Made by a program: the position numbers and the translations under genes | Shown here: positions 41,461-42,113 of the stretch, one piece after another | How the letters are laid out: each line of letters begins with the position of its first letter | Position numbering within the stretch: the stretch's first letter is position 1 | The notes under the pieces: generated by a model | Seen by the model: only the letters and a program-made list of their open reading frames with translations | The model's database searches: none | Told to the model about the DNA's origin: nothing | NCBI RefSeq assembly: GCF_058153355.1 | Contig: NZ_CM177019.1 | DNA: 64,000 nt | Direction: 5' to 3' (one strand)

Positions 41461-42113
41461 ATAAAAATCACCCAAAAAAACGATAACCCACTGTACTCCC
41501 TGTGCTTTATAAACATAAAGTCACAACACATTCTATATTCATATTAATTAATGGCGCATTGAAAAAAATCATATTATTCTTAACTCAAATCCATTAGCTA
41601 AATAAGCTTATATTCTTCACTCACAACCGTAACAAAAATAATATTATCGAAAGTTAAAGTTGGGACTATCAAATTTCGCTCATTTCAAACATACATTGTG
41701 ATTTTTGCAATCATCTTAATCTTAGGGCCTATCATCATATGTTAAAATTTTGTCAATAATAGAAAAGAATCTTGGTCACCTATCATGCGTTATAAATGTG
41801 CAACTGGCTTCCTGCAGATGCTCTTAACTTCTACAGCAGGATTTATACCAGCGTTTCAGAACTATCATATTTACCTTAAATGATCATTTCAGTCTTATAA
41901 CACGCTCAGCCTCACAAATGGTTTACACTGTCTATTGTTTGGGTAATTTAAGTAAGTCAGCTACGATCAACCTTGAATGGGGAGCCAGCAATGGACTTAA
42001 GCCTAATCGGGTCTTCAGATTGTTTCAGAATTGTATAAAAAACAATGTATTAAATAATCTGATTGTTTTTGGTCATAGTGTGACGCAGAAAGCAAGCCAA
42101 TAAGGAAATGATT

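Follow-up and report, generated by a model that had tools for sequence, protein, structure and literature searches.

Background

It is well established that the regulatory region of a core gene can be replaced by DNA acquired laterally. In Escherichia coli this was reportedly described as horizontal regulatory transfer by Oren et al. in PNAS in 2014. In a related situation, outward-facing promoters of insertion sequences (ISs) and genomic islands give a promoter to a neighbouring chromosomal gene. Here we describe how an AT-rich islet of 2,564 bp (39536-42099) has taken the place of the upstream region of ybjP in a 64,000-nucleotide stretch of contig NZ_CM177019.1 (RefSeq assembly GCF_058153355.1), referred to as the window. 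We concentrate on the spacer at 41461-42113, which runs from the ATG of the islet open reading frame (ORF) to the ATG of ybjP at 42114 and separates two divergent genes.

The regulation of ybjP is known from its dependence on rpoS in K-12, its activation by RamA in Klebsiella and its induction by vanillin, and this regulation is the main clue to when YbjP matters. The protein, a DUF3828 lipoprotein (Pfam PF12883, 1.7e-31), was uncharacterised until 2025-26, when it was found to bind TolC 3:3 in the AcrAB-TolC pump (bioRxiv 10.1101/2025.03.19.644130, 10.1101/2025.10.29.685381). In K-12 the ybjP start site was placed at -56 by primer extension (Lacour & Landini 2004) and at -55 by DMTSS (tabulated in PMC2760140). 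The -56 start is the last G of TGAAAGG and is preceded by a -10 element, CTATTAT, with C at -13.

The locus resembles horizontal regulatory transfer in that ybjP has kept its coding sequence and Shine-Dalgarno sequence (SD), the region upstream is non-homologous and laterally acquired, and start sites fall within the swapped DNA. It is unlike that system in that the regulatory DNA of ybjP is the end of a gene-carrying islet, that ybjQ and ybjP are both re-equipped, and that foreign-type sequence continues for about 48 nt into the signal-peptide codons of ybjP. As with outward-facing IS and island promoters, inserted DNA provides a promoter to a chromosomal neighbour; the islet differs from those elements in having no transposase, terminal inverted repeats or target duplication, and in being single-copy at one locus. 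The O157:H7 O-island Z1096-Z1098 (ECs0949-ECs0951 in Sakai) lies at the same ybjP/ybjQ site and has the same junctions, but the window carries a rare second allele with the islet gene intact, whereas the O157 gene is split. The promoter replacement is therefore a clear but ordinary case, the phenomenon being established and the islet already annotated as an O157:H7 O-island. New here are an explanation of a published start-site discrepancy in strain EDL933, the physical loss of the K-12 promoter, a conserved promoter-leader block, the symmetry with ybjQ, and the frequency of the islet in the population.

Islet borders and loss of the K-12 ybjP promoter

The islet ORF (39691-41460, - strand; 589 codons from an ATG, with an alternative TTG at 41475) and ybjP (42114-42629, + strand) are divergent. 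GC content is 0.328 in the spacer between them and in the islet as a whole, compared with 0.509 in the whole window and 0.527 in ybjP; the GC profile drops to 0.27-0.40 from about 39500 to about 42100 and is back above 0.5 within ybjP. In BLASTN comparisons with the K-12 locus, homology stops at 39535 on the ybjQ side and restarts on the ybjP side at 42100 (ATAAGGAAAT[G/C]ATTATG), 14 nt ahead of the ATG. By BLASTN and nhmmer, the ybjP-upstream bases common to K-12 are 42100-42113 (+ strand), comprising the SD AAGGA (42102-42106) and its spacer. A preliminary description of this DNA had stated that AT-rich islet sequence runs up to the ybjP ribosome-binding site and that the islet ORF points away from ybjP. 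Both statements hold: only the 14 nt with the SD match K-12, with a GC content of 0.33 behind them. It had also considered that the K-12 upstream region might be identical over more than 200 bp, which would move the border away from ybjP; no such identity was found, and none is possible, because the entire K-12 spacer between the divergent ybjQ and ybjP is 125 bp.

Fifty-six bases of the K-12 spacer (CGCTATTATTGAAAGGATATCATTATTATCGTAGAACGCTTTCAGAGCGATCGCTT) have no counterpart in the window, where 2,564 bp stand in their place. Both CTATTAT and the -56 start lie inside these 56 bases, and the window thus lacks the mapped rpoS-dependent promoter ahead of ybjP. When the ancestral spacer was used as an nhmmer profile with every filter disabled, the flanks lengthened only weakly, to about 39553 on one side and about 42088 on the other, at low posterior probability. 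The Marbox (AYnGCACnnWnnRYYAAAYn) was sought in the K-12 spacer, in other species and in the window; no match exceeded 11/14, so that a MarA/RamA site is neither assignable nor excludable.

Probable ybjP start sites in islet DNA

The positions of the ybjP start sites come from published data on the homologous islet of O157:H7 EDL933, which has the same two junctions as the window. Start sites in EDL933 were mapped by Cappable-seq under eight conditions (PMC10469882, Table S5) in a screen that reached 250 nt upstream of each start codon. EDL933 ybjP is EDL933_RS04960 (1032320-1032835, - strand). Its start at 1033012 (-177) was recorded in exponential LB, M9 and salt and in stationary salt; that at 1033014 (-179) only in stationary LB and stationary acid; and that at 1033043 (-208) in exponential salt, stationary M9 and stationary salt. 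Within the 250 nt screened, the table lists no start at the K-12-equivalent distance and none closer than -177. The paper's comparison with RegulonDB gives 56 against 177, 179 and 208 for ybjP, with a difference of 121, and in the accessible part of its text a comment on this discrepancy was not found.

No indels separate EDL933 from the window over 41794-42114, and the EDL933 starts transfer to 41937 (-177), 41935 (-179) and 41906 (-208), all inside islet DNA. The promoter at the two nearer starts, P1 (41924-41937, + strand), has a -10 element TACACT (41924-41929), starts at 41935 (T) and 41937 (G), and no recognisable -35; the 45 nt upstream of each start are identical to EDL933 but for one base, 41909. 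P2 (41870-41906, + strand) has a -35-like TTTACC (41870-41875), a -10 element TATAAC (41896-41901) and its start at 41906, and differs from EDL933 by two bases just before the -10. Because the P1 core is identical in a block that differs by 8-9% overall, we infer that the window allele uses the EDL933 start sites. The resulting 5' leader of ybjP (41906-42113, + strand) would measure 177-208 nt, compared with 56 nt in K-12; its predicted fold is unexceptional (z = -1.18), and it has no Rfam match.

The -10 pattern TAYRCT is favoured by sigma-S. TACACT of P1 fits this pattern, and on that ground P1 may have remained responsive to sigma-S or to stationary phase. Of the other features of such promoters, P1 has a poor -35, but T instead of C at position -13. 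Set beside the K-12 promoter, P1 serves the same gene with the same SD and shares the fit to TAYRCT and the poor -35; it differs in the lack of a C at -13, and the locus as a whole differs in the position of its starts (-177/-179 and -208 versus -56) and in a leader 3-4 times longer.

Comparison of islet alleles bears on the same region. Two alleles exist, a window type in 17-18 genomes (including EC42405, Z0117EC0005 and 2013C-4282) and a common type in about 1,110, the one carried by EDL933; their DNA is 70-88% identical over most of the islet. The spacer falls into a hypervariable block A (41461-41779), its most AT-rich part with a GC content of 0.285, and a conserved right end, block B (41780-42099, + strand; GC 0.375), which contains the ybjP promoters and most of the leader. 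Divergence between the alleles is 23-27% in block A and 8-9% in block B (Fisher p 6e-9 to 3e-7), and falls to 0-2% over the 104 nt that begin at 42100; within the common allele it is 9-12% in block A versus 1.6-2.2% in block B. Set against the adjoining spacer, the divergence of block B is accordingly lower by a factor of about 3 between alleles and of about 5 within the common allele, and the block is present at 90-95% identity in 1,110 genomes. The conservation of this right-hand block, like the junctions and the loss of the K-12 promoter, is observed in the window itself. We read the lower divergence of block B as probable constraint on the ybjP control region. A test of preferential retention was uninformative on the promoter block, with block A, block B and the left end present alike in 1,127-1,128 genomes. 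In the E. coli genome CUWW06 (L086, ~3250-4338), an IS1 replaces the islet to the left of the equivalent of ~41778, and only block B is left before ybjP.

Taken together, the K-12 promoter is gone, the EDL933 starts at -177, -179 and -208 lie in islet DNA, and these sites are conserved in the window. The proposal of the preliminary description that the ybjP promoter is embedded in or replaced by acquired DNA is thus borne out in its stronger form: it is very probable that islet DNA has replaced the promoter, with the ybjP start sites in the conserved right-terminal 320 bp. Several points weigh against this reading. A strict sigma-70 scan of 41300-42300 found 4 sites versus 4.5 expected, none of them near ybjP on the + strand, and both P1 and P2 fail it. 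With a sigma-70 weight matrix, TACACT of P1 is among the top five -10 scores of 41700-42113, again without a -35, and P2 scores poorly. Because P1 and P2 fail the sequence scans, their assignment as promoters rests on the EDL933 mapping. That mapping was made on the common allele carried by EDL933; the window-type allele is found in only 17-18 of 5,426 genomes. The 250-nt screen also leaves room for more distal ybjP start sites. Finally, the step-like divergence profile fits recombination breakpoints as well as it fits selection on a promoter.

In the sequence of events that we propose, a 2.56-kb AT-rich islet would have entered the compact promoter region that lay ancestrally between ybjQ and ybjP, separating the ribosome-binding site of ybjP from its sigma-S-dependent promoter. 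The former -10 element and start would thereby have been lost from the ybjP side, and ybjP would now be transcribed from P1 (41935/41937) and P2 (41906), with a new leader of 177-208 nt instead of 56 nt, of which a 61-codon ORF would merely form part.

Expression of ybjP and the islet gene

The preliminary description had further suggested that the acquired DNA is a likely target of H-NS and could couple ybjP expression to silencing of the islet. Under this explanation, H-NS filaments would nucleate on the AT-rich islet and spread over the ybjP promoter, so that ybjP would be silenced and de-silenced along with the islet gene. The base composition of the spacer speaks for it (GC 0.285-0.375 against 0.509), and H-NS binding at the islet is predicted from this AT-richness alone. 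The H-NS motif TCGATAAATT is not enriched; the interval has one match with 2 mismatches, and the window-wide count is within chance. For enterohaemorrhagic E. coli, the literature yielded no H-NS chromatin immunoprecipitation, occupancy or hns-mutant data at the ybjP locus.

Expression can be judged from strand-specific RNA-seq of EDL933 under 11 conditions (PMC4048457, Table S4). According to the tag map of PMC6705877, RS04960 corresponds to Z1095 (ybjP), RS04965 to Z1096, RS04970 to Z1097 plus Z1098 (the split islet gene), and RS04985 to Z1099 (ybjQ). Values are given as reads per kilobase per million mapped reads (RPKM) in the order LB, pH 9, pH 4, 15 °C, nitrite, antibiotics, solid, minimal medium, spinach, radish and faeces. 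They were 40, 112, 3, 153, 175, 0, 13, 102, 45, 46 and 0 for ybjP (Z1095), and 44, 53, 18, 235, 135, 0, 29, 44, 33, 26 and 0 for the ORF in its leader (Z1096). The two islet gene parts gave 1, 0, 0, 2, 1, 3, 0, 1, 1, 0 and 0 (Z1097) and 1, 0, 0, 3, 3, 11, 0, 2, 0, 1 and 0 (Z1098), and ybjQ (Z1099) gave 45, 73, 20, 96, 220, 5, 39, 100, 50, 36 and 30.

Over these 11 conditions the leader tracks ybjP. Expression of ybjP was 40-175 RPKM in most of them, and the islet gene did not exceed 3 in 10 of 11 and reached 11 in one. The start codon of the islet gene lies 450-480 bp from the ybjP start sites. Since ybjP and its leader are expressed while the nearby islet gene is silent, co-silencing of ybjP with the islet is not supported, and the coupling envisaged earlier finds no backing in EDL933, where ybjP and leader stand at 40-235 RPKM in most conditions and Z1097/Z1098 at 0-3, with one value of 11. 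The low laboratory expression expected of an H-NS target is likewise not seen for ybjP in the published RNA-seq of this strain.

The silence of the EDL933 islet gene fragments, which are without a listed start site, fits xenogeneic silencing of the islet gene, but that gene is a pseudogene in EDL933 and its silence may have other causes. In addition, ybjP and leader are expressed at levels similar to ybjQ, ybjP start sites are found in exponential LB and M9, and YbjP was detected in two O157 proteome studies and is abundant in O157 proteomes. We consider coupling through H-NS improbable on this evidence, although some modulation of ybjP by H-NS could still occur. A candidate promoter of the islet gene lies in block A (TTGATA-18-GATAAT, 41672 to 41643, - strand); the EDL933 Cappable-seq data (PMC10469882) list no start site for this gene.

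The 61-codon ORF

Within the ybjP leader lies a 61-codon ORF (41918-42103, + strand), a homologue of Z1096/EDL933_RS04965. As RS04965 is on the ybjP strand and shares the start at 1033043 (PMC10469882), it is the EDL933 version of this ORF. An explanation that competes with a conserved promoter-leader block is that block B encodes a real 61-amino-acid protein in a two-gene operon with ybjP, its conservation being coding constraint. In its favour, 8 of 10 other alleles keep the ORF open, its frame runs for 91 codons without a stop in AT-rich DNA, and half of the changed codons are synonymous (7 synonymous versus 7 non-synonymous). It was also annotated in early EDL933 records and is transcribed. 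However, two of the 10 other alleles have a stop at codon 13, no SD precedes the ATG in the sequence, and the ATG lies upstream of the P1 starts (-177/-179), which occur in exponential and stationary LB. Its only relatives among 5.8 billion proteins are E. coli copies of itself, with no homologue outside the islet; it has no Pfam or NCBIfam match, it was dropped from the current EDL933 RefSeq annotation, and Z1096 is not listed in the accessible supplements of the EDL933 translatome paper. The RNA-seq signal of Z1096 is explained by the ybjP leader. The small-protein explanation therefore has little chance of being correct, and the 61-codon ORF is probably not a gene; it had looked spurious from the outset, and an orphan frame without an SD that is broken in 2 of 10 alleles bears this out.

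Distribution and origin of the islet

A species scan with YbjP, taking one genome per species, yielded 80 loci. The ybjQ–ybjP spacer is short (mostly ~100-130 bp) in four Escherichia species representatives, Salmonella, most Citrobacter, Enterobacter, Klebsiella, Kosakonia and others, and Escherichia, Salmonella and Citrobacter share a conserved core, GCTATyATTGAAAGGATAT..ATT.ATyAwCGTAGA. This short, sequence-conserved spacer across Enterobacteriaceae indicates that the islet is an insertion, and thus the derived state, and not a sequence deleted from K-12. The islet was found in 1,128 of 5,426 complete E. coli genomes, in one copy per genome and always on the chromosome, with O157:H7, O55:H7 and O145:H28 among the carriers. 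It is absent, with conserved flanks, from K-12, B2 strains, E. albertii, other Escherichia species representatives and Salmonella. Its composition is deviant, as is characteristic of islets (GC 0.328 versus 0.509 for the window), and examination of the junctions and ORFs revealed no flanking direct or inverted repeats, target duplication, integrase or transposase. In a search for a donor, neither the islet protein nor the small ORF had relatives outside E. coli/Shigella.

Were the islet arrangement ancestral, the 125-bp spacer of K-12 would be the product of a deletion. The lack of mobility signatures (direct repeats, integrase) around the islet and the great age of its two alleles, with 27% protein divergence, agree with such a history. 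We regard it as highly improbable nonetheless, given the short conserved spacer of the four Escherichia representatives, Salmonella and Citrobacter, the short spacers of other genera, and an islet gene without a full-length relative outside E. coli/Shigella.

A possible degenerate remnant of the ancestral ybjP -10 and start-site region is found at 39536-39553 (+ strand), where nhmmer aligns TGCCATGTTGGGAAGAAG with CGCTATTATTGAAAGGAT at falling posterior probability. The match is weak (10/18 by eye) and lies 2.5 kb from ybjP, and the -10 is mutated from TATTAT to CATGTT, so that at most a mutated trace of the old promoter, TGCCATGTTGGGAAG, survives at the far (ybjQ) border of the islet. Read-through from far upstream, whether from this remnant at the ybjQ border or by antisense transcription across the islet gene, draws on the weak trace for its support, but with a mutated -10 there and capped 5' ends at -177 to -208 it has a negligible chance of being what drives ybjP. 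Promoter replacement by the right end of an inserted islet remains our preferred reading.

Several Citrobacter species carry insertions of 1.1-3.2 kb at the same ybjQ–ybjP spot (L010 1875-5000; L011 1842-5000; L012 2773-5000; L016 3409-5000; L021 3864-5000). They are unrelated to the islet, BLASTN of the one against the others giving nothing significant, and these unrelated inserts at one spot make the ybjQ–ybjP spacer a recurrent insertion hot spot. In L010-L012, TCATTGAAAGG, from the ybjP start-site region, is present at both junctions. Among the genes carried by the Citrobacter inserts are a cspG-like gene and a phytase of the appA family; the insert of Citrobacter sp. FP75 contains a chromosomal gene of the qnrB family (L012 3303-3947; 473 bits versus a cutoff of 460). 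One sequence, AAAACAATGTRTTAA, is shared some 60-90 nt upstream of ybjP (window 42036-42050; L010/L011/L021 ~4908-4942). Position-restricted local alignment gave p values of 0.001-0.14 across the four sharing loci, with 0.001-0.05 for L010, L011 and L021, and the left end was not significant. As a lead only, AAAACAATGTRTTAA might be a site bound by the same protein in both or a leftover of shared descent.

The ybjQ border and the ybjP coding sequence

Two promoters were predicted for ybjQ at the left end of the islet. The distal one (39590 to 39563, - strand; TTGACA-16-TAAACT, start ~39558) is near-consensus and consists wholly of islet DNA; the proximal one (39549 to 39521, - strand; TTCCCA-17-GATAAT, start ~39515) has an ancestral -10 and a -35 at the junction. 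Both match EDL933 ybjQ starts, at -78 and -34 (PMC10469882). Since the left end of the islet supplies or reshapes the ybjQ promoters, the insertion has re-equipped both genes of the divergent pair.

On the other side, an islet-linked haplotype extends into ybjP (42122-42161, codons 3-16). Over the first 60 nt of ybjP, islet carriers agree at 100%, whereas their identity to each of the islet-free sequences compared is 70-78%, and B2 strains have a differing ybjP 5' end though the remaining gene is 95-100% identical to the window. Residues 4-8 of the signal peptide are RSLSL in islet carriers (MRYRSLSLL...) versus SKLTM in islet-free strains (MRYSKLTML...). The foreign segment thus seems to run past the conserved SD and ATG into the ybjP coding sequence, and this pattern suggests that homologous recombination brought in the islet along with a foreign 5' end of ybjP. 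Further downstream ybjP is a mosaic. Over nt 61-300 (42174-42413), K-12 differs from the window by 17-25%, but identity to the window is 92-100% for B2 strains and for Escherichia sp. MOD1-EC7003, which points to an old two-allele polymorphism of ybjP independent of the islet. A C-to-G change relative to K-12 creates an extra in-frame ATG two codons before the ybjP start (42108-42116, ATGATTATG), and ORF callers lengthen ybjP to 42108. This ATG is unlikely to serve as a start codon, as it begins 1 nt past the SD.

The islet gene and neighbouring features

The islet ORF encodes a pentapeptide-repeat protein of 589 amino acids (Pfam PF13599, 29 bits, below the cutoff of 38), whose N- and C-terminal parts are orphan sequence. 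Its two alleles share 73% protein identity. The window has an intact gene. Of 9 other full copies examined, that of Z0117EC0005 is intact too, and 8 are frameshifted, truncated or interrupted by an IS; in O157 the gene is split. Many intact copies of the common-type protein are found in protein databases. Among 1.84 billion representatives it forms a single full-length cluster at 50% identity, with no full-length relative outside E. coli/Shigella. It has no match in PDB and, against NCBIfam, only a weak repeat-level match to HalA. In one database entry it is annotated as a putative type III effector.

Elsewhere in the neighbourhood, the window contains ybjS (+ strand), amiD (38331-39161, - strand) and ybjQ (39158-39481, - strand), with artP and the remaining art operon after ybjP. 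An Rfam scan of 39000-43000 gave nothing above threshold; its sole sub-threshold match was CRISPR-DR53 (25 bits versus a cutoff of 45) on a hairpin directly after ybjP (42659-42695, - strand). This hairpin is most likely the ybjP terminator rather than a CRISPR repeat.

Conclusions

About 21% of E. coli, including O157:H7, lack the K-12 ybjP promoter and have another promoter pair with a 3-4-fold longer leader; regulatory data from K-12 are therefore not simply transferable to these lineages. The locus is a clean example of an islet insertion that re-equips both genes of a divergent pair, and its two natural alleles offer a ready-made promoter-swap experiment. More tentatively, and with considerable doubt, both ends of this E. 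coli-restricted orphan islet may have been domesticated as promoters, the left end for ybjQ and the right end for ybjP, with ybjP rewired away from its ancestral control. If so, the largely pseudogenised islet would be kept as a regulatory scaffold in one fifth of E. coli, O157:H7 included, and could not be lost cleanly, and ybjP would be cut off from sigma-S and possibly from the MarA/RamA-type stress induction that is shared with tolC and acrAB. Because YbjP is a newly known partner of TolC, this natural promoter polymorphism is worth knowing, though unsurprising in kind.

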